A DNA stretch of 64,000 nucleotides from a phage, in the NCBI GenBank assembly GCA_016389475.1, contig GCA_016389475.1_3042.1. The stretch is one strand, 5' to 3'. The notes beneath the pieces were generated by a model, which was given only the letters and a program-made list of their open reading frames with translations, ran no database searches and was not told where the DNA came from. The translations under genes and the position numbers were made by a program. Below, piece after piece: positions 3,638-37,443 of the stretch. Every line of letters starts with the position of its first letter. The stretch's first letter is position 1.

Positions 3638-3856
3638 TTATTTCTCTAATATAAAATAAAAATCATCATCTGTTAAATGATACCGATAGTTTAATTCTAC
3701 ACCATTAGATTTAAAAGCGGTATCATACGGATTTTCTGGATCAATATCAATGTCAAGAGCTAAAACTTCCCTGAGATACATTTTAAGTAAATAGGGAATA
3801 GCTTCAACTTCAGGTATTTCTTCCAAGAATCCGGAGAGGTTAATCGTTAGCCTCAT
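3638..3856 (-). CDS. hypothetical protein (72 aa)
   Basis: ATG at 3856; overlaps the gene 55 stop region. Confidence 0.5.
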
Positions 3857-4397
3857 ATAAAAAATCCAAACTAGGAGAATCGTCTACAACACTTTTCTTT
3901 TCAGCCCCCGGTGTTCTATAGGTTGATTCTTCGTAATGCGTCATTTTATCATAGATGTCTTGAATAAAAGTTTCATCTACTAACGCAACCATATCGTCGT
4001 CACGGCTGTCATAGACATTGTGAACGAAGTAACTATATTTCTTTGCAACTTCCTTACGTTCTTTTTTAATACGTTGGACGAATGCATTAAAACAAGCTTG
4101 AGTTATATATGCATGTGGGTTTTTATATTTCGTTTCATCAAAATTGTGAAGCCCCTTAATAGAAGCTTCTATACCATCTGCAATCATTTCTTGTTTCCAA
4201 GACTGGGTGTATCCTGAAAAGTTGAAACGTTTAGATAAGCCTTCTGCAATAAGCATAATGGCTAATCCGATAGTATCATTCTGACGAACTACTTTATTTG
4301 GGTCTTTATTATTTGCTAATTCTGTTTTCCAATCAATAATAGCTTGTAAAAGCTCTTTATTGTTTACGTAATTATATTTAGGCTTAGTTTCTGACAT
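3840..4397 (-). CDS. 55: gp55 sigma factor for late transcription
   Basis: Track start 4403 is GTG; ATG at 4397 gives 185 aa [23 protein letters not shown]..., the length and N-terminus recalled for T4 gp55. Confidence 0.85.
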
Positions 4398-4475
4398 TTT
4401 CACCTCTTAGCTCAATTCATAGATCTATTATATCATAATATTTGAAGATCTATCTTAAAGCATAGAGGATATCAG

Positions 4476-4745
4476 TTATCTAAGTAAACAGTATGCTTGG
4501 AACACTTTCTCCATCATCTTTTTAAATTCATGAATATCTATATAATGACTAGTTAGATCAGCATGATATAAAAAGTCTAAAAACTTTTCATGTGTACTAG
4601 CATATTCGCTTTCATTTAATTCAGAAACATGGCTTTCCCAATATCCAACACCAGTCTTATTTGGGAAAAATGAAATTTTCATGTATTGATCAACATAGAA
4701 AATGCCATAATTTTCAATAGTAATAGAAATATTAATAAATTTCAT
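4476..4745 (-). CDS. hypothetical protein (89 aa)
   Basis: ATG start; tight packing with neighbours. Confidence 0.5.
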   Translation of the reverse strand: MKFINISITIENYGIFYVDQYMKISFFPNKTGVGYWESHVSELNESEYASTHEKFLDFLYHADLTSHYIDIHEFKKMMEKVFQAYCLLR

Positions 4746-4957
4746 ACATTCATCAACTTAGCCGCTCCAAGAGCTGCATCTAGTGAATCAAATTGGTCAA
4801 CATATTCAATCAATTCGCCGTAATTGGCATATAACCACCATTGGCTAAATTCATACTCAAGGATGAATCCATTTCCTTCAATTTGAGTTAAACCATTGCC
4901 GTTTGTATTTACTTCATATCCGGCAAGACGCAAATCGTTAATAAGAGATTCGTTCAT
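4742..4957 (-). CDS. hypothetical protein (71 aa)
   Basis: ATG start; 4-nt overlap with downstream ORF. Confidence 0.5.
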   Translation of the reverse strand: MNESLINDLRLAGYEVNTNGNGLTQIEGNGFILEYEFSQWWLYANYGELIEYVDQFDSLDAALGAAKLMNV

Positions 4958-4959
4958 AA

Positions 4960-5286
4960 TTATACCTTAGTAATTTTCAGGTCTGCAAATTTTTTCTTGC
5001 GTTGATTTTTCATGCGACGAATAGTTTTATCGGAAATTTCATGCTTTTGATAAGCTTTAGATTCTACACCAAAAGCTTTAACATCAAATTCTGACAAGAT
5101 ATATTGAACCAACAATTCACGGACAGTATTGCGTCCAATTTTCTGATCATTCTGTTTCATCGTCTGATGAAGTTCTTTTTCCCATTTATCCAAAATTTGA
5201 GGAGTTACAATATCGCCTTTTTCTAGCAAAGAAACTACTTTATCATATGCGTAAGAATTGATGGCGTTTTTAATTTGAATAGTCAT
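4960..5286 (-). CDS. hypothetical protein (108 aa)
   Basis: ATG start. Confidence 0.55.
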   Translation of the reverse strand: MTIQIKNAINSYAYDKVVSLLEKGDIVTPQILDKWEKELHQTMKQNDQKIGRNTVRELLVQYILSEFDVKAFGVESKAYQKHEISDKTIRRMKNQRKKKFADLKITKV

Positions 5287-5326
5287 ACATTATCCTCAAT
5301 TGCGTTAAAATTTTATTATCCAAAAA

Positions 5327-5342
5327 AAGGGCCGAAGCCCTT
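5327..5342 (-). terminator. intrinsic terminator (hairpin plus U-run)
   Basis: Minus RNA UAA-GGGCUUCGGCCC-UUUUUUU directly after the stop of ORF 5341-5541. Confidence 0.65.
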
Positions 5343-5541
5343 AGCTAAACTGTTTGGCACCCTTCCAGCCTTCGTACATCATTGCGACTGACAATGACAA
5401 AGCTCCTTCGCATGCTGCATACTTATTATTCCAGAACCAATTTAGAAAAACTTCATCCTCAATACCATTGTGTTTCATGTTCTGGAAAAATTTGGCGCGT
5501 TCTTCACGAAGCTTTTGCGATAACATAGATTCAGGATTCAT
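5341..5541 (-). CDS. hypothetical protein (66 aa)
   Basis: ATG start; stop immediately followed by hairpin plus U-run terminator. Confidence 0.45.
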   Translation of the reverse strand: MNPESMLSQKLREERAKFFQNMKHNGIEDEVFLNWFWNNKYAACEGALSLSVAMMYEGWKGAKQFS

Positions 5542-10037: not shown

Positions 10038-10214
10038 TCAAGTATTGTAAAAGGCTCGATGCAATCGCTTATATTGTCGAATCATCTTTTTAGTAGGACG
10101 AGAATAAGTTCCTACACAAGTGGTCATATTAGGGTCGGTAGGACTTCCTTTAATAAAAAGTTTCCAAACCTTACCGCCATTTAACTTTTCAGTATAAATC
10201 AATTCAGTTTTCAT
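10038..10214 (-). CDS. hypothetical small protein (58 aa, below the track threshold)
   Basis: ATG overlaps upstream stop (TAATG); MKTELIYTEKLNGGKVWKLFIKGSP... Confidence 0.35.
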   Translation of the reverse strand: MKTELIYTEKLNGGKVWKLFIKGSPTDPNMTTCVGTYSRPTKKMIRQYKRLHRAFYNT

Positions 10215-10660
10215 TAAAACGCTCGGTCAGAAAAAGAAATTTGAGTTTCAAGCCATTCAATATATTCTGCCGCGGCTTGCATTAAATTTCCTTCGTAATC
10301 ATCAATATCTTTTTTCAACGCCGATTTAGATAATGCATATGAAATGCGTTCACCCTGAAATCCAGCTTTAGGTTTATGAAGAACTTGATCAATTCGTTCT
10401 ACAACTTCTTCAATTTCGCCATTTTCTGCGGATTCAGTATTCCACAAGCACCAATACGTAATTGGCTTATCGTAGATGTTAATAATCTTTCCATCAGAAA
10501 GTTCAATTTCAATAATTCCAGTATCAGGTTCTATATCATCTTCGCATTCTTTTGCAAGTTCACGAACTTTAAAGACAGTACCTGCACTAAGTTCCGGCCA
10601 GTAATTACACAGCCCTTTATCAGCACGATTAATTCTAAACCACTTATCTACTGCAATCAT
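10214..10660 (-). CDS. hypothetical acidic protein (148 aa)
   Basis: Track start 10678 is TTG; first ATG at 10660. Confidence 0.5.
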   Translation of the reverse strand: MIAVDKWFRINRADKGLCNYWPELSAGTVFKVRELAKECEDDIEPDTGIIEIELSDGKIINIYDKPITYWCLWNTESAENGEIEEVVERIDQVLHKPKAGFQGERISYALSKSALKKDIDDYEGNLMQAAAEYIEWLETQISFSDRAF

Positions 10661-10783: not shown

Positions 10784-11104
10784 TTATAGCGTAATCCATT
10801 CTCGTACTATCTGAGTTACTACACGTTCACGGGGCTCGACTAGTTCAACAGTCGGAACTGCATAATACCAGTCAGAATGATAAGAACCTGACCGAGATTC
10901 ATTTACCGCTACATGTACATTATGTTTTGGACTAAAGTAAACACACTGACGATATTGACATTTACCATCTTGCACCCAGTCTTCTATTTCGACAGGTTTA
11001 AGATAATCGGAAAAATCGAAATCATAGTTTTCCGAAAATGCATCATGGTCTTCAATGATTTCGCTCAGAACTGCATCAACATCTAATTTATTTTCAATAG
11101 TCAT
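10784..11104 (-). CDS. hypothetical protein (106 aa)
   Basis: ATG start. Confidence 0.5.
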   Translation of the reverse strand: MTIENKLDVDAVLSEIIEDHDAFSENYDFDFSDYLKPVEIEDWVQDGKCQYRQCVYFSPKHNVHVAVNESRSGSYHSDWYYAVPTVELVEPRERVVTQIVREWITL

Positions 11105-11764: not shown

Positions 11765-12007
11765 TTATTCCTTAATTCCTAATACTTGTTTAAAAGTCTC
11801 GTCGTAATCAAGACTTTGGCCCGTTTGTTCTTTATGTTTGTATATAATATCACTTACTTCTGATAGCATATTTTTATATGAACGAGTTAAAGCAGATTTA
11901 AGCACGCTGTATCTATCAGGAAATTTACCATGTTCATTATAATAAGCTATTGCTAATTCACGGACTGCCTTTTCAGCAGCCTCCATATATTCTTTACGCT
12001 TGGTCAT
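11765..12007 (-). CDS. hypothetical protein (80 aa)
   Basis: ATG start. Confidence 0.5.
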
Positions 12008-12009
12008 TT

Positions 12010-12399
12010 TTAATCCAAAATATTATTAGGCATTGGTTGAACACTCACAAGTTCTTTAAAGAACTCAGTAGAGTCAGGCAATTTAACCATTTCCGGAGCA
12101 TGCTTACTGAATTTATGTTTACATTGACGGCATTTATATTCAAGCTCTGGTTTACGCCAGTTAATCAATTGAACTTGTTCAGTACCGCATTCAGGGCAAT
12201 TAGGAACGTTTTTAGAAGCTCTTTCACGTCGTTCAACCATAGCCATAATAGCATCCCATGCTGGAGGTTTAAAATCTAAATCGTCGCAGCCGTGAATCTT
12301 TCCACGCATTTCCATATCATCTTCCTCACCAGCCATAATAATTTTAATTAAACTGGAATTACTTGAAGCTGCAATGTCTTCTAATAAACGCTTTTTCAT
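12010..12399 (-). CDS. hypothetical zinc-ribbon protein (129 aa)
   Basis: CPEC...CRQC four-cysteine ribbon. Confidence 0.55.
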
Positions 12400-13322
12400 T
12401 TCAATACCTCAATAGCATTACGTAAACCATTTGCTTTGGCGGTTAAAGCCTTAAGAACTTTAGTATGCTCTTCAATTTGTTTTTCAACTTCAGTCAAACG
12501 GACATTGAGATATTCACGTTCTTCTTTCATAGTATCATTTCCATGATTGGATTTTGGTATAGGTTTAAATTCACTAGGGTCCTTTAATTTAATAACAAAT
12601 TTAGTTTCAAACAGTGAAAGACCATAATTCGTATTATCATCAAAGGATTTGACTACATCCATATCAGATAATAACACGCGCAAATTATAAGCCAAAGAAC
12701 TAATAGTTTCATTGTGTTTATTAGCTTCGCGTGGTTTCATATACGGAAGATTTTTATATATCTCATGCGGAGCGCAAACGATAATTGACAATTCAAATTG
12801 TCCATTCTGGGACGATGGAATGAATTTAGCCGTAACCCAGTCTTTTACATTCACATTAATAGTACGGTTATCACCATGACAAAACAGTCTACGAGAATGC
12901 TTAAAAAGCATATTCACGTTATTATTGAATTCGTGTGAAAATTCACTAGCAAATTTTTCTTTACTATCTTTAGAAAACCATTCTTCTAAATAAGTTCTTT
13001 TCACGTCGTTAATAATATTAAATGTAACAACACTAGCATTTGATACATTAGTCTTAATGTAGCTTGGATACATAAATTTTTTAACATTATTAACAGCTAT
13101 CACAGAAGATAGTAATCGGGAACGTTTGAACCACTCGAGCAAAGAACCAAGAGAATGTGAATACGCATTTTGTGTATCTTTACAAATATGGTTTTCCCAT
13201 CCAATATAGTCTAAAAAATCACGAAGAATATTATTGATTACTGCTCTGTGTCCGATTTGATAATTACGGTGTTTAGTAATAAGACTGTCAAAATAATCAA
13301 TATAATGTTTACGAGTTTTCAT
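12396..13322 (-). CDS. hypothetical protein with C-terminal coiled coil (308 aa), first of four tandem similar-architecture proteins
   Basis: N-terminus MKTRKHY...; C-terminal heptad segment [31 protein letters not shown]. Confidence 0.6.
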   Translation of the reverse strand: MKTRKHYIDYFDSLITKHRNYQIGHRAVINNILRDFLDYIGWENHICKDTQNAYSHSLGSLLEWFKRSRLLSSVIAVNNVKKFMYPSYIKTNVSNASVVTFNIINDVKRTYLEEWFSKDSKEKFASEFSHEFNNNVNMLFKHSRRLFCHGDNRTINVNVKDWVTAKFIPSSQNGQFELSIIVCAPHEIYKNLPYMKPREANKHNETISSLAYNLRVLLSDMDVVKSFDDNTNYGLSLFETKFVIKLKDPSEFKPIPKSNHGNDTMKEEREYLNVRLTEVEKQIEEHTKVLKALTAKANGLRNAIEVLK

Positions 13323-13373
13323 GTTCTTCTCACTTGTTAATGATTTATACTCCGAGCCATCCTTGGCTTTAAA

Positions 13374-14375
13374 TTACTTAATTAACTGTAAAGCTTGTTC
13401 AAGACGATCCAAGCGATTAACAGATTCTTCCCAAATCTTTTTAGCCTTCTCATATTCTTTCTGCGCTTTATTAGAAATTTCTAGAACTTCTTTATAAGCT
13501 TTTTCTAGTGCAACAACTTCTGGACGAATTTCTACCGGTTCAAGTGAATCGTCAAGATTATCCATTAGTTCCTCAAGGGTAGTTTCTTCTTTAGGAGTAT
13601 TCACAATTTCTTCGCATTTTTGTTGGTAAATTTCTTTATCAGTTAGTGAATAAGCACATTTCACTTCACGAAGACTAATTACAATTTTATATCCTTCCCA
13701 ACCACCAATATTTTTGAAAGGATATGTATGAATACTTTTTACAGTTTCCATACAATCCAAAGCCGTCTCTAATTGATGAGTTATAGTGCTAGCAATTGAG
13801 AAAAATTTATTAATATTCTTTTGGTTAGCTTCTGGTGTAAAAAATTCATAATTCACAAAAATAGCTACTTTATTTTTATCAAGCTCATATTCTTTTACGA
13901 TAATCATATCAGAAGCCAAAGGATGAATTTGACGATAATCGCCATAACATAATTTAGAAGCTGATTTTAGAATTTGTCCTTTAAAAAGTCTGAAATTACT
14001 AATCCAACGACGAGTAAAAATATTCTTAGGGTCTTCTTTGATATTAAGATGATAAGAATTAACATCACCGAACCAATTGTATCCTATTACACCTTTAGTT
14101 CGTTTAATTTCTTTCCCAAAATTACCAAGAATATCCCGATTAACTAAATATGAAAGAAGACGAGACCCTTTAAAGATTATCTTAATATCATCTTTATCTA
14201 CACGGCTAGAAATTTCACGAACTTCATGAATAAATTTACTGGAAGAAACAATACTTGCATCAATACTGCTGAGCCATTGATTGATAATAGAAAGAACAGC
14301 ATTCTGACTAGACATGGGTTTAACTTTATCATCAATAACCCTATTGAATGATTTGATATATTCGTTACGAGTCAT
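13374..14375 (-). CDS. hypothetical protein with C-terminal coiled coil (333 aa)
   Basis: Shortened to ATG 14375 (MTRNEYIKSF...) because early promoter 14404-14433 and GAGGAG lie inside the longer track ORF. Confidence 0.6.
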   Translation of the reverse strand: MTRNEYIKSFNRVIDDKVKPMSSQNAVLSIINQWLSSIDASIVSSSKFIHEVREISSRVDKDDIKIIFKGSRLLSYLVNRDILGNFGKEIKRTKGVIGYNWFGDVNSYHLNIKEDPKNIFTRRWISNFRLFKGQILKSASKLCYGDYRQIHPLASDMIIVKEYELDKNKVAIFVNYEFFTPEANQKNINKFFSIASTITHQLETALDCMETVKSIHTYPFKNIGGWEGYKIVISLREVKCAYSLTDKEIYQQKCEEIVNTPKEETTLEELMDNLDDSLEPVEIRPEVVALEKAYKEVLEISNKAQKEYEKAKKIWEESVNRLDRLEQALQLIK

Positions 14376-14403
14376 ATTAATCTCCTCAGTAGAAAGTAAG
14401 AAC

Positions 14404-14433
14404 ATTATACCACATCCTTGTGGCAAAGTAAAC
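14404..14433 (-). promoter_or_regulatory. early (sigma70-type) promoter
   Basis: Minus strand GTTTAC (14433-14428), 18-nt spacer, TATAAT (14409-14404); conserved leader then GAGGAG and ATG 14375. Confidence 0.55.
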
Positions 14434-15452
14434 TAGTTCAGTGCATTTAATGCACTGTTCAGTTTAGAACGTTGCTTTGTCAGATTTTGAACCCTTGACT
14501 GAGCTTGTTCTAACGCCTTTTCAGCTTCTAGCACTTCATTGGTCGCTTTAACGAGTTCATCATCTACTGCCTTGATAGACTTCTCAATCGCATCCGCGTG
14601 CCATTTTTCAACAGGTTTAAGACTCGGATTTTCAACAGGAAGAAAATTCACTTTATTGAATTTCCATGCATCATTATTACCTGAACTATACATCCAAAAT
14701 TTAGGATCGTTTGATAAGTAATTGGATAAATTTAAGTTATCTTGTACTTCCTGCTTTTTCTCTTGCGGGACTTCGTCCTTTCTCAAAAAATCGTATTTAA
14801 ATGAAACGATCATATCAAGTTCATATGATGTTGTATCTAACTTAAATCGTTCAAAACGAGGTAAAATCTTAGACTGAACAGCGGCAACAACATCCATATA
14901 CTTAAATGCTTCTGTCAACTGTGATTTAAGGCATTCACAAATTGAAAGAGAATTTTTTGTATTAGGTTTAAAGCTAATTCGTGCAGTTCTATTATTTTCT
15001 TTTAATGGTCTTACTTCCATCTGAAGAGTATAACCATCAAATTTCAGGTTCTTTAAGTTATTGTCAGAACCTTTTAATCGACTAGCTGTCGACAAAATTT
15101 GCTTTAACTGTTTACGGAATAGAGCAATAAATCTCCATTCAATACGATAATGATTGGGATTGAAAAATCCAGATGATAAATCAACCTTACTCTGACCAAC
15201 ACCTTGAACAAATAGAGGATTTTTATAATCAATAGTTTTACAGAAATCGGTGAGCTGCTCACGAGCAGTCATTTGTGTAATATATCCCGCTTTACTAAAA
15301 TGACGTAACCATTCACTGCTATTCATATACTTAAAGTGAATGGAACTATTAACTCTATCAGGGTCTAAATTATTTTGGCACAAAAATGTCATAACATCAC
15401 GAGTATAGCTGGCATTACGAACCATATCTTCAATTTGAGAACGAGTTTTCAT
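14433..15452 (-). CDS. hypothetical protein with C-terminal coiled coil (339 aa)
   Basis: N-terminus MKTRSQIEDM...; C-terminal EVLEAEKALEQAQSRVQNLTKQRSKLNSALNALN. Confidence 0.6.
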   Translation of the reverse strand: MKTRSQIEDMVRNASYTRDVMTFLCQNNLDPDRVNSSIHFKYMNSSEWLRHFSKAGYITQMTAREQLTDFCKTIDYKNPLFVQGVGQSKVDLSSGFFNPNHYRIEWRFIALFRKQLKQILSTASRLKGSDNNLKNLKFDGYTLQMEVRPLKENNRTARISFKPNTKNSLSICECLKSQLTEAFKYMDVVAAVQSKILPRFERFKLDTTSYELDMIVSFKYDFLRKDEVPQEKKQEVQDNLNLSNYLSNDPKFWMYSSGNNDAWKFNKVNFLPVENPSLKPVEKWHADAIEKSIKAVDDELVKATNEVLEAEKALEQAQSRVQNLTKQRSKLNSALNALN

Positions 15453-15460
15453 AGTGTTCC

Positions 15461-16348
15461 TTAAGATTTAAGTAAATCAACAATTTTAATTAACTTTTCA
15501 CGCTCAGATTTAGCTTTACTACTCAATCCAGATAGTCTAAAGATTTCATCGTCATATTGTTGAATAGAAATATTCAGCTCTTCAATTTGCTTATTAAAAT
15601 AATCAATTTGCTCAGAATGTTTTTCGTTACTACGAACTGGTACAGGTTTTGTAGGCAATTTAGTTGAACTGGATTCATCCGGGCGATAAATTAAAATACA
15701 ACTTGAACCAATTGGACATTTTGCACCAGATGAATATTCTAATGTTCCAGATTCTTTTAAAACTTCAAAAGCTAAACAGAGATGATGACCCATATTGACA
15801 TAATCAGTAGAGCAAGCTCTGATGTAATAATCATCTCCACGAGTACTAAATTTAAAGCATTTAAGGTCTTCTGTATTATTGGTCTTAAAAATCATTTGTT
15901 TATCTAGACCTTTAGCTAATCGAGCGCCTAATGCTAATAATCGTCGTTGATTTTCCCACAAATCTGCAATCATTTGGTCAAATGATAATTTTGGCATTAG
16001 TCGACCATAAAGGTCATATCCTTTATTATAATTACGAAGAATTTCACTCGCATTAATACGAGACAATGCTCCAATTTTATTAAGGGCTTTCATGATGCGA
16101 TTAGATAAACTCATTCCAGATCCGTTTGTTCGCTGTAAATGTTTTTCTAATCCAAATCCAATATCAACTTTAAATTTATCTAAAATTTCAGCATGAACAT
16201 CTCTGTCAATAACATTCAAATCCAAAGTTGGGTTAAATCTATGAAAAAATTTATCTGGCTCTCCACGACGAAGTACAGTCCATTCATTCAATTTTTTATT
16301 AACTAAAGATTTAATTACTGTATTGACATTATTAATTACTACTGACAT
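15461..16348 (-). CDS. hypothetical protein with C-terminal coiled coil (295 aa)
   Basis: Track start is GTG; ATG at 16348 with GAGGAA upstream. Confidence 0.6.
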   Translation of the reverse strand: MSVVINNVNTVIKSLVNKKLNEWTVLRRGEPDKFFHRFNPTLDLNVIDRDVHAEILDKFKVDIGFGLEKHLQRTNGSGMSLSNRIMKALNKIGALSRINASEILRNYNKGYDLYGRLMPKLSFDQMIADLWENQRRLLALGARLAKGLDKQMIFKTNNTEDLKCFKFSTRGDDYYIRACSTDYVNMGHHLCLAFEVLKESGTLEYSSGAKCPIGSSCILIYRPDESSSTKLPTKPVPVRSNEKHSEQIDYFNKQIEELNISIQQYDDEIFRLSGLSSKAKSEREKLIKIVDLLKS

Positions 16349-16355
16349 ATTTTCC

Positions 16356-16763
16356 TCACTCAATTTCAATTTTACTAAATACACAGAATATGATGGAAAA
16401 GACTATATAAGCACCGCATACAGATTGAACTAATACCATTCCAAAGAACCAAACGATATTATCAAACAATGTCTGTTTTACGTCGAAAGGACGTAAACTT
16501 ACAGTAATATTATCACCTTTTTCTATTGAAGAATACATCTCTGGGGAAATATATTCACTAAATCTATAACCGTCTTTGAGTTCATATACGGCAATAAACG
16601 ATAAACTAGACCCCTTTCCTTGAGTTCCTGTAATGGTATTAACTACAGTAACATCATAATCTTTATAATGCATATAATCATTAATAGCATAATAACCATA
16701 TGCAATTACTATACATAAACAACATATCAATAAATTCAATCTTTTAATTATCAACTGTTTCAT
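16356..16763 (-). CDS. membrane protein (135 aa)
   Basis: Two hydrophobic helices (N-terminal LLICCLCIVIAYGYYAI, C-terminal FFGMVLVQSVCGAYIVFSIIFCVF). Confidence 0.5.
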   Translation of the reverse strand: MKQLIIKRLNLLICCLCIVIAYGYYAINDYMHYKDYDVTVVNTITGTQGKGSSLSFIAVYELKDGYRFSEYISPEMYSSIEKGDNITVSLRPFDVKQTLFDNIVWFFGMVLVQSVCGAYIVFSIIFCVFSKIEIE

Positions 16764-16818
16764 AATAATCTCAATTAAAAGGGCTTAGAACCATTATACC
16801 ATCCTTGGTATAAAGCGG

Positions 16819-17346
16819 TTATGCGAGTACCGTCTTTAACCGTTCTTCAAATTTCCGAAGAGTGTTCTGGCGTTCAGCTCTTTGCTTTTTGTAAGTTTCA
16901 ATACGCTCTGAAATGAGAGTGTATCGTTCATTTACTGATTCTTTCATAAAATCAGGAATTTCACGAGAAGCTTTAATCTCATCAAATTTATCAATAACAG
17001 CTTGCTCTTCAGCAATTAAGTTATCATACATTAAAATATCTTTCTTGATGAACTCAATATCTTCTTGAGTTACACGAGATAATTTAGATGCTTTATCCTT
17101 TTTGTACTGTTCGTTAGTATCACGAGACCAGTGTAATGTACGATTTTTATTCGTATTTTTGTAAATTTCTACAATACCAATTTCATCAATAATAACGATC
17201 CAATTCCAACGGGATTTGTAAATTTGTCCTCCATCAACAGTGATTTCACCTCCGATTGAGATGTCATTAAAGAACTTGCTTTGTGCTTCAGATTTAAATT
17301 TACCGTCGTTATAATTTACCAGGTTGAAAATATCTTTAGCGTTCAT
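16819..17346 (-). CDS. hypothetical protein (175 aa)
   Basis: ATG start downstream of early promoter 17371-17402. Confidence 0.55.
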   Translation of the reverse strand: MNAKDIFNLVNYNDGKFKSEAQSKFFNDISIGGEITVDGGQIYKSRWNWIVIIDEIGIVEIYKNTNKNRTLHWSRDTNEQYKKDKASKLSRVTQEDIEFIKKDILMYDNLIAEEQAVIDKFDEIKASREIPDFMKESVNERYTLISERIETYKKQRAERQNTLRKFEERLKTVLA

Positions 17347-17830: not shown

Positions 17831-18799
17831 TTATTTCAGTAAAGTAACTTCCGAGATTTCTTCCCAACCATCTTTATCAGTTGAAATAAAATCTGCTACA
17901 TAAAGAGCCGTACGTAATGATACATTGCGAAGACGAGATACGTTAGCCTTCATCCAGGACAATGCTTTATACGTTTCTGCATCCGTCAGACCACGTTTCT
18001 GCATCATGTCAGTAGATAATATTACATCTTCAACTCGAACCATAATCTCTTCATTAGAGTGTACTCCAAGGTCGAGATACACTGAACGAGATACTAAAGC
18101 TTGAAGGTGTGGAGCAAGTTTCGAACCCCGTTCTAACTCTTTATCGATATCAACGTTTGTAATGAAAACGATAGTACCTTCAAACTCAAATTCTTTATCA
18201 ATACCCTTATCCTCGAGATAAGATGACGCAGTGCTCCAACAAACTTTGCGTTTATCTCCGGTATCTAATGCTGCTTTAAGAAGGTTCAGGATGTCCATAT
18301 CTGAGAATACGTCAACGTCATCGATTAAGAGAACGCTGTCTTCATCACGGTTGAGCCAAAGTTGTTCGTAAAGGCCAATACCAGAGATTTTACCATTAAT
18401 GCTTTTGTATTTGATGAAACCGTTATCATTAGCATTATTAAGTGCTTTATCCAGAGAATACGTTTTACCAATACCTGCTGCTCCCGAGATAATTAATGAA
18501 CGAATGTTTCCGTTAATAATACCATTCGTCATCATTCCCATAACATTAAATCTTTTATTAATGCGGGTTTTCATATCTTCATACGATTCTTTAACTTCTT
18601 CAACTTTTACACCATCATATGAAATGTCTGATTTGTAAACCCAAACACCGCGACGCTTACCGTCAATTTCAACAAAAACTTTACCATCTCCTTGTGCATC
18701 TACCGGAGCATTATCTGGGAACCATTCACCTAAGAGCTCAAAAGTTCCAGAGATTTCTTTACCGAAGTAGATACCCTTATTGATAGTTACAGTTTTCAT
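17831..18799 (-). CDS. P-loop NTPase (AAA-like) with ~115 aa N-terminal extension
   Basis: Walker A GAAGIGKT and Walker B VLLIDDVD; track start is TTG, ATG at 18799 with GGAG upstream. Confidence 0.65.
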   Translation of the reverse strand: MKTVTINKGIYFGKEISGTFELLGEWFPDNAPVDAQGDGKVFVEIDGKRRGVWVYKSDISYDGVKVEEVKESYEDMKTRINKRFNVMGMMTNGIINGNIRSLIISGAAGIGKTYSLDKALNNANDNGFIKYKSINGKISGIGLYEQLWLNRDEDSVLLIDDVDVFSDMDILNLLKAALDTGDKRKVCWSTASSYLEDKGIDKEFEFEGTIVFITNVDIDKELERGSKLAPHLQALVSRSVYLDLGVHSNEEIMVRVEDVILSTDMMQKRGLTDAETYKALSWMKANVSRLRNVSLRTALYVADFISTDKDGWEEISEVTLLK

Positions 18800-18863: not shown

Positions 18864-18893
18864 CGTTTTGTGAAAAATTTTTGAAATAAAAAA

Positions 18894-18911
18894 GGGAGCC
18901 CGAAGGCTCCC
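18894..18911 (-). terminator. intrinsic terminator after the nucleotidyltransferase gene
   Basis: Minus RNA GGGAGCC-UUCG-GGCUCCC followed by UUUUUUAUUUC; 3 nt after the stop. Confidence 0.7.
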
Positions 18912-18913
18912 TA

Positions 18914-28783: not shown

Positions 28784-29257
28784 TTATTTGAACGATTTAA
28801 CGTACTGAATAGAACCTTTACTATTTACAAAGGCAATTTTACCATTTTTATTATACATGGTAGCAGTACGCTGATAGCCATAAGTTTGCTTACCAGATTG
28901 ATAACCAACTAATGCAAAATTATCTTCACCCATTTTATTCTGTTTAGCGCGAATGCGTTCATGACCATGTGCCATAAGAACCTTAGCATCACCAGTTACA
29001 ATGGATCGACGAGTTTTTTCATCTTCAACTGTATTAACAAAGTCGTCAAATGAATCAAATTTAGCATGAGATTTATTATACAGTTTTCCATCTACTGCAT
29101 AATTATATCCCTGTACATCCATCTCAACTTCTGTACCATCATCCAATACAGCAGTAATTTTCTGTCCTTTTTTAAATTTCAAAAGATCAGTAAAAGATTC
29201 AGCAATAATTTGAGAATTAATAGCTGCTTCAGTGATAAATTCTTGATATGTTTTCAT
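28784..29257 (-). CDS. internal-protein-like virion protein with capsid-targeting sequence
   Basis: Begins MKTYQEFITEAA (CTS pattern with L/I-x-E prohead-protease site); lysine-rich; early promoter 29311-29341 upstream. Confidence 0.6.
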   Translation of the reverse strand: MKTYQEFITEAAINSQIIAESFTDLLKFKKGQKITAVLDDGTEVEMDVQGYNYAVDGKLYNKSHAKFDSFDDFVNTVEDEKTRRSIVTGDAKVLMAHGHERIRAKQNKMGEDNFALVGYQSGKQTYGYQRTATMYNKNGKIAFVNSKGSIQYVKSFK

Positions 29258-32166: not shown

Positions 32167-32760
32167 TTATTTCAGAGAATTAATATATTCCTGAACATCG
32201 GCAGAGGTAGTTTCAACCCCAGAAATATTGCCATTAAAGGTTTCAACTCGGGCAAGAGTATCTTCAATATCAACCTTAGTCAGCGCTGCAATTTCAACTA
32301 CATCATCAGCAGTACTAATTCCGAGGGCATTCGCGGCGCGAGTTTCACGGATATATTCCAATTTAACTGCAAGTTCTTGGCGAGCATCATCTAACTCAAC
32401 TACTTTCTTGGCGATTTCAATTCGCATTTCAGCATAACCATCAGCTTTAGTAGTCAGCTGCTCAGCTGTTCGACGATATAGTAAACCGAGTTTAGCATGC
32501 ATTGTTACATCTTGACCTTCAGAAAGGAGCTTGCGAATTTCGCGCTCTTTTGATTCGGCCTGCTTATTCTTTTCGACAATAAGTTCACGAATACGCTTTT
32601 CTTCGTTAATAGATTTAATGGAAGCAGTTTTTAGGTCTTTAATCTTATCAAGTAGTTTTGCTGCTGCAGCAGTATACTGTTCTTCAACAGATAGATTTTT
32701 AGCCATAACAGAACCAAGTTTAGTGCGAATAAACTCAACAATTTTCTTCAGTGTGTTCAT
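32167..32760 (-). CDS. hypothetical coiled-coil protein (197 aa)
   Basis: ATG start downstream of early promoter 32802-32831; long charged heptad-like helices. Confidence 0.55.
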
Positions 32761-32801: not shown

Positions 32802-32831
32802 ATTATATCATGCTATTTAAGAGATGTAAAC
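32802..32831 (-). promoter_or_regulatory. early (sigma70-type) promoter
   Basis: Minus strand GTTTAC (32831-32826), spacer, ATATAA; drives ORF 32167-32760. Confidence 0.45.
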
Positions 32832-33321
32832 TATTTTTAATTTTACAAATTCGTTCAGCTTCTTCAACAGCGGCAGTGATAATGCTTTTAGCTATAGGAG
32901 TACTAATACTAGTAGCTTTTACACTTAACACGATTTCTTTATCTTTACCAGGCCAACCCCACGATTTTTCACCATGAGTGCCTTTAATTACAGCAGACAC
33001 CTCAAGTGAGCATCCATTATCACATGTTTTTACATTAACAACCCAAGTGTCACTTTTCTCAACCGGTTTATCCCAGTAAATATTGAGAATACGCGGGACA
33101 TCAAATTTAGCAGGGCAAATCTTAACCGTAAGACCTTCGCTTTCTAGCCAATTAATAAGAGGACGTTCATACATGCGGCGATGTGGGCTTTGAACTCGAC
33201 AAGCCTTGTACCCATTGCTTGCGGCTTCACTAAGCTCTTCTAATACCTGCTTTTGCATTATTGATAAGATACCATCAAAAGATTTTTCGGAAGTTTCATT
33301 CAGTTCGGTATAAAGAGACAT
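32803..33321 (-). CDS. hypothetical protein (172 aa)
   Basis: Track start is TTG; ATG 33321 with GAGGAAAA upstream. Confidence 0.55.
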   Translation of the reverse strand: MSLYTELNETSEKSFDGILSIMQKQVLEELSEAASNGYKACRVQSPHRRMYERPLINWLESEGLTVKICPAKFDVPRILNIYWDKPVEKSDTWVVNVKTCDNGCSLEVSAVIKGTHGEKSWGWPGKDKEIVLSVKATSISTPIAKSIITAAVEEAERICKIKNSLHLLNSMI

Positions 33322-37158: not shown

Positions 37159-37443
37159 TTACAAAAGATTTTTAGCAATAATTTTAAGCTGAGCTACTGA
37201 AATATGCTTGGCTTTAAACAAAGCAGTTTCTTCAGCAGGGGAGATAACGATTGTAGCACCATCTTTCTTAGCGGACCATCCATCACCCAGGTAAACAGTA
37301 CCTTTGACTTCTTCGCCATCAACCAGGCTAATCATCGGTTTACCTTCACGTCCTTTGTTTGCTTTAATAACTTCAGAAGTAAGGGTCGCTTCAGTCAAAG
37401 TAGAAGCGTTAGTGGTTGAAGTGAATTCTTGATAAGTTTTCAT
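37159..37443 (-). CDS. ipI: internal protein I-like virion protein with capsid-targeting sequence (94 aa)
   Basis: Begins MKTYQEF...; size and position immediately upstream of 57B as for T4 ipI; early promoter 37475-37504. Confidence 0.6.
   Translation of the reverse strand: MKTYQEFTSTTNASTLTEATLTSEVIKANKGREGKPMISLVDGEEVKGTVYLGDGWSAKKDGATIVISPAEETALFKAKHISVAQLKIIAKNLL

Follow-up and report, generated by a model that had tools for sequence, protein, structure and literature searches.

Four consecutive intact open reading frames (ORFs) on the minus strand of a 64-kb stretch of phage DNA (contig GCA_016389475.1_3042.1, hereafter the window, whose positions are used for all gene coordinates below unless another phage is named) occupy positions 12396-16348 and correspond to the genes nrdC.3, nrdC.4, nrdC.5 and nrdC.6 of phage T4. 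We found that the products of nrdC.3, nrdC.4 and nrdC.5, and probably that of nrdC.6, belong to one modular superfamily, in which a divergent body is followed by a C-terminal heptad-repeat helix. Our preferred reading, which we consider reasonably probable, is that the four genes form a duplicated family of early, non-essential anti-defence proteins, where the body would set the target and the tail would drive oligomerisation.

The stretch 12000-16800 matched more than 500 phage genomes at 90-97% identity in megablast (genus Tequatrovirus, T4-like), and the matching genes are annotated as nrdC.3 to nrdC.6 in RB51 and T4. The earlier note, which was made from the sequence alone, had listed four tandem ORFs of 308, 333, 339 and 295 aa, and their coordinates, starts and lengths were confirmed. 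The nrdC.3 orthologue lies at 12396..13322 (308 aa, 92% identity to T4 NrdC.3) and is the family member closest to nrdC.4, which lies at 13374..14375 (333 aa, 88% identity to T4 NrdC.4). The nrdC.5 orthologue is at 14433..15452 (339 aa, 95% identity to T4 NrdC.5), and the most divergent member, the nrdC.6 orthologue, is at 15461..16348 (295 aa, 97% identity to T4 NrdC.6 over 259 residues). The ATG starts at 13322, 14375, 15452 and 16348 all have a Shine-Dalgarno sequence, which is GAGGAG upstream of ATG 14375; a mechanical ORF list gave 350 and 307 aa from upstream TTG/GTG codons, and we preferred the lengths above because their ATGs are backed by ribosome-binding sites. The genes are co-directional with gaps of 8-57 nt, and the order of transcription is nrdC.6, nrdC.5, nrdC.4, nrdC.3, then nrdC.2, nrdC.1 and nrdC.

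Homology of the four bodies was analysed with family profiles, called C3, C4, C5 and C6 after nrdC.3 to nrdC.6. Pairwise BLASTP of the four proteins gave a match for C3-C4 only (E 0.019). Divergent members of the families came from tblastn of phage genomes, whereas for C5 word-indexed searches gave only close relatives, at least 79% identical. NrdC.3 matched phrog_1435 (E 1e-98, residues 2-308 on profile positions 1-334) and NrdC.4 matched the same profile over its full length (E 5e-164); in precomputed annotation this family is Pfam PF26897. NrdC.5 matched Pfam DUF7235 (PF23882) over its full length with 401 bits (E 5e-120; the gathering score is 30 bits), the same profile scored only 15 bits on NrdC.3, in the tail alone, and the NrdC.4 and NrdC.6 proteins had no match in this search, which leaves NrdC.5 as the sole strict member. 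It is the orthologue of the T4 protein at the same locus, whereas the other three window proteins are less than 25% identical to NrdC.5 and lie in other Pfam and PHROG families. NrdC.6 matched phrog_2257 over its full length (E 1e-152), and all its homologues carry PF26899.

Profile alignment with hhalign connected these separately filed families. C3 and C4 aligned with 97% probability both over the full length (E about 1e-11) and with the bodies only (E 4e-12), so that the paralogy of nrdC.3 and nrdC.4, judged from sequence, is solid. C4-C5 gave E 8e-6 to 2e-4 over the full length and E 2e-4 to 8e-4 for the bodies, and C3-C5 gave E 2e-5 to 6e-5 and E 5e-4 to 4e-3, respectively. When a C3/C4/C5 profile was searched with HMMER against 1.84 billion representative proteins, just 18 proteins were returned, and several of them were intermediates. 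One of these (P0212) is gp58 of Klebsiella phage Potts1, which matched the C3, C4 and C5 hidden Markov models (HMMs) at 3e-5, 6e-9 and 3e-14 and gave full-length hhalign alignments to the C3/C4 (97%) and C5 (95%) profiles. There is thus good evidence, at the level of profiles, for placing nrdC.5 in one superfamily with nrdC.3 and nrdC.4.

The connection of C6 was less direct. In hhalign between families, C6 was not significantly similar to C3, C4 or C5 (probability at most 7%), but the C6 alignments always covered the same four-helix core, with C6 residues 82-146 on C5 residues 45-128. Against the superfamily, the full-length E-value fell from 0.005 to 4e-4 and then to 2e-6 as the profile was broadened. 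A bridge was provided by gp085 of Enterobacter phage IME523, a single-copy gene in the same genomic slot, which matched C6 with 30 bits by HMM and with 94% (E 1e-7) in hhalign, and which matched the C3/4/5 profile with 98% (E 2e-13). A search of the rest of the 64-kb window found no further paralog. The superfamily is specific to T4-like phages (Straboviridae and close relatives).

AlphaFold2 monomer models of C5 (predicted local distance difference test, pLDDT, 65) and C6 (pLDDT 78) agreed in the order of their elements, which runs from a helical N-terminal domain through a β-β-α-β-β domain and a disordered linker to a terminal helix. In nrdC.5 the helical core comprises residues 45-128 (15069..15320, minus strand; helices 45-54, 57-68, 104-114 and 116-126), which align across all four families, and it is followed by the predicted ββαββ domain of residues 141-218 (14799..15032, minus strand) and a disordered linker of residues 222-277 with pLDDT below 50, which precedes the C-terminal helix. 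The corresponding core of nrdC.6, aligned with nrdC.5 45-128, is at residues 82-146 (15911..16105, minus strand; helices 81-91, 94-106, 123-132 and 134-144), with the predicted ββαββ domain at residues 165-221 (15686..15856, minus strand). In Foldseek searches of predicted viral structures, the C6 model matched the IME523 protein (E 7e-7) as well as proteins of about 300-335 aa from T4-like phages of Pectobacterium, Acinetobacter, Yersinia and Citrobacter, the C5 model matched the Sf25 NrdC.6 model (E 2e-4), and both models matched the same proteins of Merlin and fHe-Yen9-01. No solved-structure relative, enzyme family or catalytic motif was found for the four proteins. Based on these models, each member would consist of an N-terminal helical core plus ββαββ domain (the body), a disordered linker of variable length and a C-terminal amphipathic heptad helix of 43-57 residues.

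To judge the tails, the score of a and d positions in each was compared with 5000 composition-preserving shuffles of the same residues. The z values were 4.8 for nrdC.3, 3.1 for nrdC.4 (p = 0.006), 7.0 for nrdC.5 and 4.6 for nrdC.6, and in each protein the last 43-57 residues kept one heptad register throughout, with no proline and 0-1 glycine. All four tails are at the extreme C-terminus and end with a common motif, hydrophobic-x-x-L-K. By a crude C-terminal heptad score, the products of nrdC.3 to nrdC.6 ranked 2nd, 8th, 1st and 6th among the 66 window ORFs of at least 100 aa. The two allele classes of nrdC.3 are 100% identical in the tail (residues 266-308, 12399..12527, minus strand), and among Tequatrovirus copies of nrdC.4 variation is lowest in the tail (residues 286-333, 13377..13520, minus strand); across the proteins of this genus the tail was the least variable and the linker the most variable part. 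In the NrdC.5 model the heptad helix (residues 283-339, 14436..14606, minus strand) is a lone 56-residue helix (283-338, pLDDT 77-89), and in the NrdC.6 monomer the tail (residues 242-295, 15464..15625, minus strand) folds back as a helical hairpin, with helices 242-271 and 277-294 and a short break at 272-276. The earlier note had proposed coiled-coil tails on all four proteins, which agrees with a periodicity above that of shuffles in each and with helical tails in both models, and the peptide it quoted is the C-terminus of the 339-aa protein. It had also allowed for the outcome that the bodies are unrelated and the tails a coincidence of composition; the profile comparison was run, and the bodies aligned, directly for C3-C4, through Potts1 gp58 for C5, and more weakly, through IME523 gp085 and Foldseek, for C6. 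The divergent paralog family that it suggested is supported.

Heptad-like C-terminal helices were also indicated by the crude score in nrdC.8 (16819-17346) and in the ORFs 32167-32760 and 32803-33321, which belong to phrog_1203 and phrog_6869. The nrdC.8 tail had z = 3.1 and this gene is 99% conserved. None of these three proteins matched the NrdC.3-6 profiles.

The N-termini of the proteins are MKTRKHYIDY (nrdC.3), MTRNEYIKSF (nrdC.4), MKTRSQIEDM (nrdC.5) and MSVVINNVNT (nrdC.6). The similarity noted earlier for the first three proteins thus holds as a common M(K)TR start, in which T3 and R4 are invariant across genera. A motif scan of the crude gene set flagged two of the three and one unrelated 64-aa ORF, and the MTR of nrdC.4 was read directly; no other N-terminal tripeptide is as frequent in the window as MKT, with which 8 of 104 crude genes begin. 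We also considered whether M(K)TR could be a capsid-targeting sequence, whose consensus we take to be MKTYQEFI(A/T)E with an (L/I)xE cleavage site, and rejected this, as the resemblance is limited to the common MKT and a Y/F-I pair and no (L/I)xE site is present. The ORFs 28784-29257 and 37159-37443 start with MKTYQEF, presumably the capsid-targeting sequence of T4 internal proteins.

Comparison of related phages showed that the array always occupies the same slot, between nrdC.7/nrdC.8 and nrdC.2, upstream of nrdC, with a copy number that varies from one to four. Tequatrovirus has four copies (C6, C5, C4, C3), Gaprivervirus and Dhakavirus have three (C6, C5, C4), Mosigvirus MM02 also has three (C6, C5, C3), Mosigvirus ESCO47 has two (C6, C3), and Kanagawavirus and Marfavirus have a single copy. 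Such a series at one syntenic slot fits tandem duplication and loss; the earlier note had suspected tandem duplication and had recommended this comparison. The family would have arisen by tandem duplication of a single ancestral gene just upstream of nrdC.2/nrdC.

The four genes also diverged faster than the genes around them. The ratio of nonsynonymous to synonymous divergence (dN/dS) between the window and T4 was 0.23 for nrdC.3, 0.31 for nrdC.4, 0.12 for nrdC.5 and approximately 0.18 for nrdC.6, compared with 0-0.06 for the neighbours nrdC, nrdC.1, nrdC.8, nrdC.10 and nrdC.11. Within Tequatrovirus, nrdC.3 falls into two allele classes, with about 140 genomes at 90% identity or more to the window and about 284 at approximately 60%. 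In phage JoYop, whose nrdC.3 (4501-5430) is of the second class, the first 30 residues and the tail end are 100% identical to the window type, whereas most blocks of the central body are 83-97% identical to the Mosigvirus protein and 31-53% to the window type. These mosaic alleles indicate that the body is replaced as a cassette, with the N-terminus and the tail on either side staying fixed.

Some other variants of the array were found. A 299-aa metagenome (Logan) protein, P0056, is an in-frame fusion of NrdC.5 residues 146 to approximately 270 with the C-terminal half of a JoYop/Mosigvirus-type NrdC.3, which implies deletion of nrdC.4 by paralog recombination at a short shared N(K/N)VN motif. 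In the T4 reference (NC_000866, 9067-9894), nrdC.6 has a single-base deletion relative to window 15461-15640 (GAGCTGAATATT to GAGCTG-ATATT), and the resulting frameshift removes the coiled-coil tail (275 versus 295 aa). Read in the old frame, the DNA beyond the frameshift still specifies the tail, and the gene is intact in other T4 records, so this is a recent mutation of the laboratory strain or a sequencing error. What appeared to be a body replacement in Escherichia phage Ec_YwIITB1 was rejected; it is only a frameshifted nrdC.5 (3776-4779) split into ORFs of 180 and 86 aa, either a pseudogene, which means natural loss of the anti-Dsr1 gene, or a sequencing error. The 173-aa protein P0211, in which 120 unrelated N-terminal residues precede a tail that is 100% identical to some of the NrdC.5 tails, was considered as a rare module shuffle and not relied on, since none of 50,697 phage records contains this N-terminal part and the protein may be an assembly chimera.

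An experimental function has been reported for NrdC.5. An evolved T4 deletion mutant fails on E. coli ECOR17 owing to the Dsr1 sirtuin system, and T4 nrdC.5 alone, expressed from a plasmid, restores its plating on dsr1 cells (Srikant et al. 2022, eLife, PMC9391042). The gene is described there as early and non-essential; the paper does not state which paralogs the deletion mutant had kept and does not describe paralogy, architecture or mechanism. The Dsr1 sensor recognises the phage major capsid protein (2026 Nature, PMC13581612). Directly downstream of the four genes are pin (10214-10660, 88% identical to that of T4 and annotated as an inhibitor of the host Lon protease), 49.2 (10784-11104, 96% identical), whose product inhibits OLD (PMC13096335), and nrdC.1 (11765-12007, 99% identical), whose product inhibits Septu (bioRxiv 10.1101/2025.11.20.689424). 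The whole pin-nrdC.x stretch looks like an anti-defence island. For the four proteins, no family of known function was matched in Pfam, NCBIfam or PHROG, no family was assigned by PADLOC and other anti-defence libraries, and a literature search returned no functional mention of nrdC.3, nrdC.4, nrdC.6 or the Pfam accessions of the families. The earlier note had suggested different partners for the individual copies, for example defence proteins, and for NrdC.5 this agrees with the published work; because this copy is known to overcome Dsr1, nrdC.3, nrdC.4 and nrdC.6 are good counter-defence candidates, and it is by paralogy that we infer anti-defence roles for them.

According to our preferred reading, family members made early in infection would neutralise host immune proteins stoichiometrically, each body binding a particular defence protein. 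The NrdC.5 body would bind the Dsr1 sirtuin NADase and, most plausibly, occupy or lock its sensor before the late capsid-protein trigger appears. This binding is proposed by analogy with DSAD1 of phage SPbeta, which is reported to inhibit the DSR2 sirtuin defence by competing with the trigger for the sensor region; DSR2 too is an NADase with a SIR2 domain, and its sensor responds to a late structural protein. No sequence or fold similarity of DSAD1 to the family was found. An amphipathic helix of about 50 residues that stands alone and exposed to solvent should not be stable in monomeric form; the tail most likely drives homo-oligomerisation, which would give the inhibitor avidity for oligomeric defence complexes. 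Duplication, fast amino-acid change and swapping of body cassettes could then produce new specificities.

Several results weigh against this reading. On the functional side, an experimental function exists for one of the four copies, our literature search found no published mechanism of NrdC.5, binding or otherwise, and the bodies of C3, C5 and C6 are basic (pI 9.2-9.4), which would also fit nucleic-acid binding. The gene-wide dN/dS values are all below 1 and do not demonstrate positive selection. The T4 reference lacks the NrdC.6 tail, so the tail is dispensable in the laboratory. In leave-one-family-out tail HMMs, the C5 and C6 tails were not recognisably similar to the others and ranked 15th and 13th of 240; the idea of a conserved sequence module common to the families was dropped for this reason, and a shared tail here means shared position and type, not sequence. 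In structure comparison, the Foldseek TM-scores were low (0.2-0.5), since the models are multi-domain with flexible linkers, and the confidence of the C5 model was moderate. The link of C6 with bodies only was weak (hhalign 36-68%, E 5e-5 to 4e-4), and an HMM of the bodies of the other families did not retrieve the C6 body (E 0.73).

These last results bear on whether nrdC.3, nrdC.4 and nrdC.5 are the only paralogs and nrdC.6 is an unrelated neighbour with an independently acquired C-terminal coiled coil, which would also agree with the non-significant direct comparisons of C6, the missing M(K)TR start and the separate filing in Pfam and PHROGs. But every profile comparison aligned the same four-helix core in register, with a significance that rose as the profile broadened, the IME523 protein matched both sides, the Foldseek matches were reciprocal and over the full length (E 2e-4 to 7e-7), the elements come in identical order in the two models, and C6 sits in the same array in all examined genera with more than one copy, so we regard an unrelated nrdC.6 as quite improbable. 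Given such relatedness, the four paralogs might still be subunits of one hetero-oligomeric complex, zipped together by their tails and acting jointly on a single target, as could be expected from adjacent, co-directional genes whose tails are the most conserved part of each protein and share their extreme C-terminal position and end motif. A joint complex is hard to reconcile with related phages that carry one, two or three copies in varied combinations (Mosigvirus lacks C4, Dhakavirus and Gaprivervirus lack C3, and ESCO47 lacks C5), with the tail-less NrdC.6 of the T4 reference and the split nrdC.5 of YwIITB1, or with tail sequences that differ strongly between families. Plasmid-borne NrdC.5 alone restores infection on dsr1 cells, which also speaks against it, though the paralogs remaining in that mutant were not stated. 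We consider a hetero-oligomer unlikely.

The proteins could instead be host-takeover or regulatory factors, such as nucleic-acid or nucleoid binders or adaptors of host machines, for which the Dsr1 effect of NrdC.5 would be a side effect; the basic bodies, the early expression, the absence of an assignment in the anti-defence libraries and the absence of a known-fold relative are all compatible with this. Against it, the genes are not needed for growth on laboratory hosts, evolved T4 lost them at no cost, and their variable presence, swapped alleles and dN/dS above that of their neighbours are typical of accessory arms-race genes. They are also embedded among the proven anti-defence genes pin, 49.2 and nrdC.1, and no DNA-binding domain was detected in the family search. 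A takeover role is thus unlikely in our judgement. A more specific proposal, which we offer as speculative, is a modular decoy platform, in which an exchangeable body, carried on a fixed N-terminus and a fixed oligomerising tail, would imitate the surface of a late structural protein seen by bacterial pattern-recognition sensors. Early oligomeric decoys would then saturate sensors (those of Dsr1/Avs7 type for the major capsid protein, and others) in the inactive state before the real triggers arrive, and the platform would be redirected at new sensors by duplication and by the exchange of cassettes among phage genera. Compatible with it, as hints and not as a demonstration, are the capsid protein as trigger of Dsr1, the body-only swap of nrdC.3, and the many weak matches (E about 1e-2) that Foldseek gave between the ββαββ domain of the C5 model and proteins of the tail-completion, terminator and connector types.

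The anti-defence family that we favour can be compared with two known systems of T-even phages. The T4 internal proteins IPI, IPII and IPIII are likewise a small family within one phage, with one shared module and variable bodies, each against its own host defence, with IPI countering GmrSD and IPIII a system of ECOR17. Their shared module, a capsid-targeting sequence, lies at the N-terminus, and these proteins are injected after packaging, whereas NrdC.3-6 have a C-terminal coiled coil and are made from early transcripts, and the bodies of the two groups are unrelated. The T-even anti-defence islands (dmd-tifA-adfA and pin-49.2-nrdC.1) are also clusters of small, early, non-essential genes with one defence each (ToxIN, RnlA, DarTG, OLD, Septu), and nrdC.3-6 lie directly beside the second of them. 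The genes within those islands are unrelated to one another, whereas nrdC.3-6 form a block of true paralogs, nrdC.6 probably included, whose products of about 300 aa would share one modular build.

Other features of the cluster were recorded. An early-promoter-like site lies upstream of nrdC.4 at 14404..14432 on the minus strand (GTTTAC-17-TATAAT, extended -10 TG); it is a consensus match only, and in a consensus scan the overall count of promoter-like sites in the region was no higher than in shuffles. Between nrdC.11 and nrdC.10 the minus strand carries the sole strong terminator-like site in the cluster (18893-18912), where a GC-rich hairpin of 8 bp without mismatches (AGGGAGCC-TTCG-GGCTCCCT) precedes a run of T. 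Downstream of nrdC.3, and overlapping its end by 4 nt, nrdC.2 (12010-12399) is of the 129-aa RB51 type (99% identical), with a CxxC...CxxC zinc-ribbon match; its identity to the 104-aa T4 protein is only 78% over 100 residues, which makes it another variable gene of the cluster. Upstream, nrdC.10 (17831-18799), an AAA/STAND-like ATPase with a helix-turn-helix match, had a synonymous divergence from T4 of 1.17 with a dN/dS of 0.05, compared with 0.09-0.22 for the synonymous divergence of its neighbours. From these values it seems to be an old divergent ATPase allele swapped in by recombination.

T4 is the best-studied lytic phage, and about half of its genes have no known function. The four genes were already known as ORFs, as was the phenotype of NrdC.5, and phage counter-defence proteins are a known category. 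New here are the merging of three separately filed families (PF23882, PF26897/phrog_1435 and PF26899/phrog_2257) into one modular superfamily, its proposed single-copy ancestor with the expansion to between one and four copies, and the natural body swap of nrdC.3. Linking nrdC.3, nrdC.4 and nrdC.6 to nrdC.5, the only one with a phenotype, makes three orphan genes candidates for anti-defence functions and gives one superfamily whose proposed division of labour, specificity from the body and oligomerisation from the tail, can be tested. The locus may also help to explain or engineer the host range of T4-like therapeutic phages.

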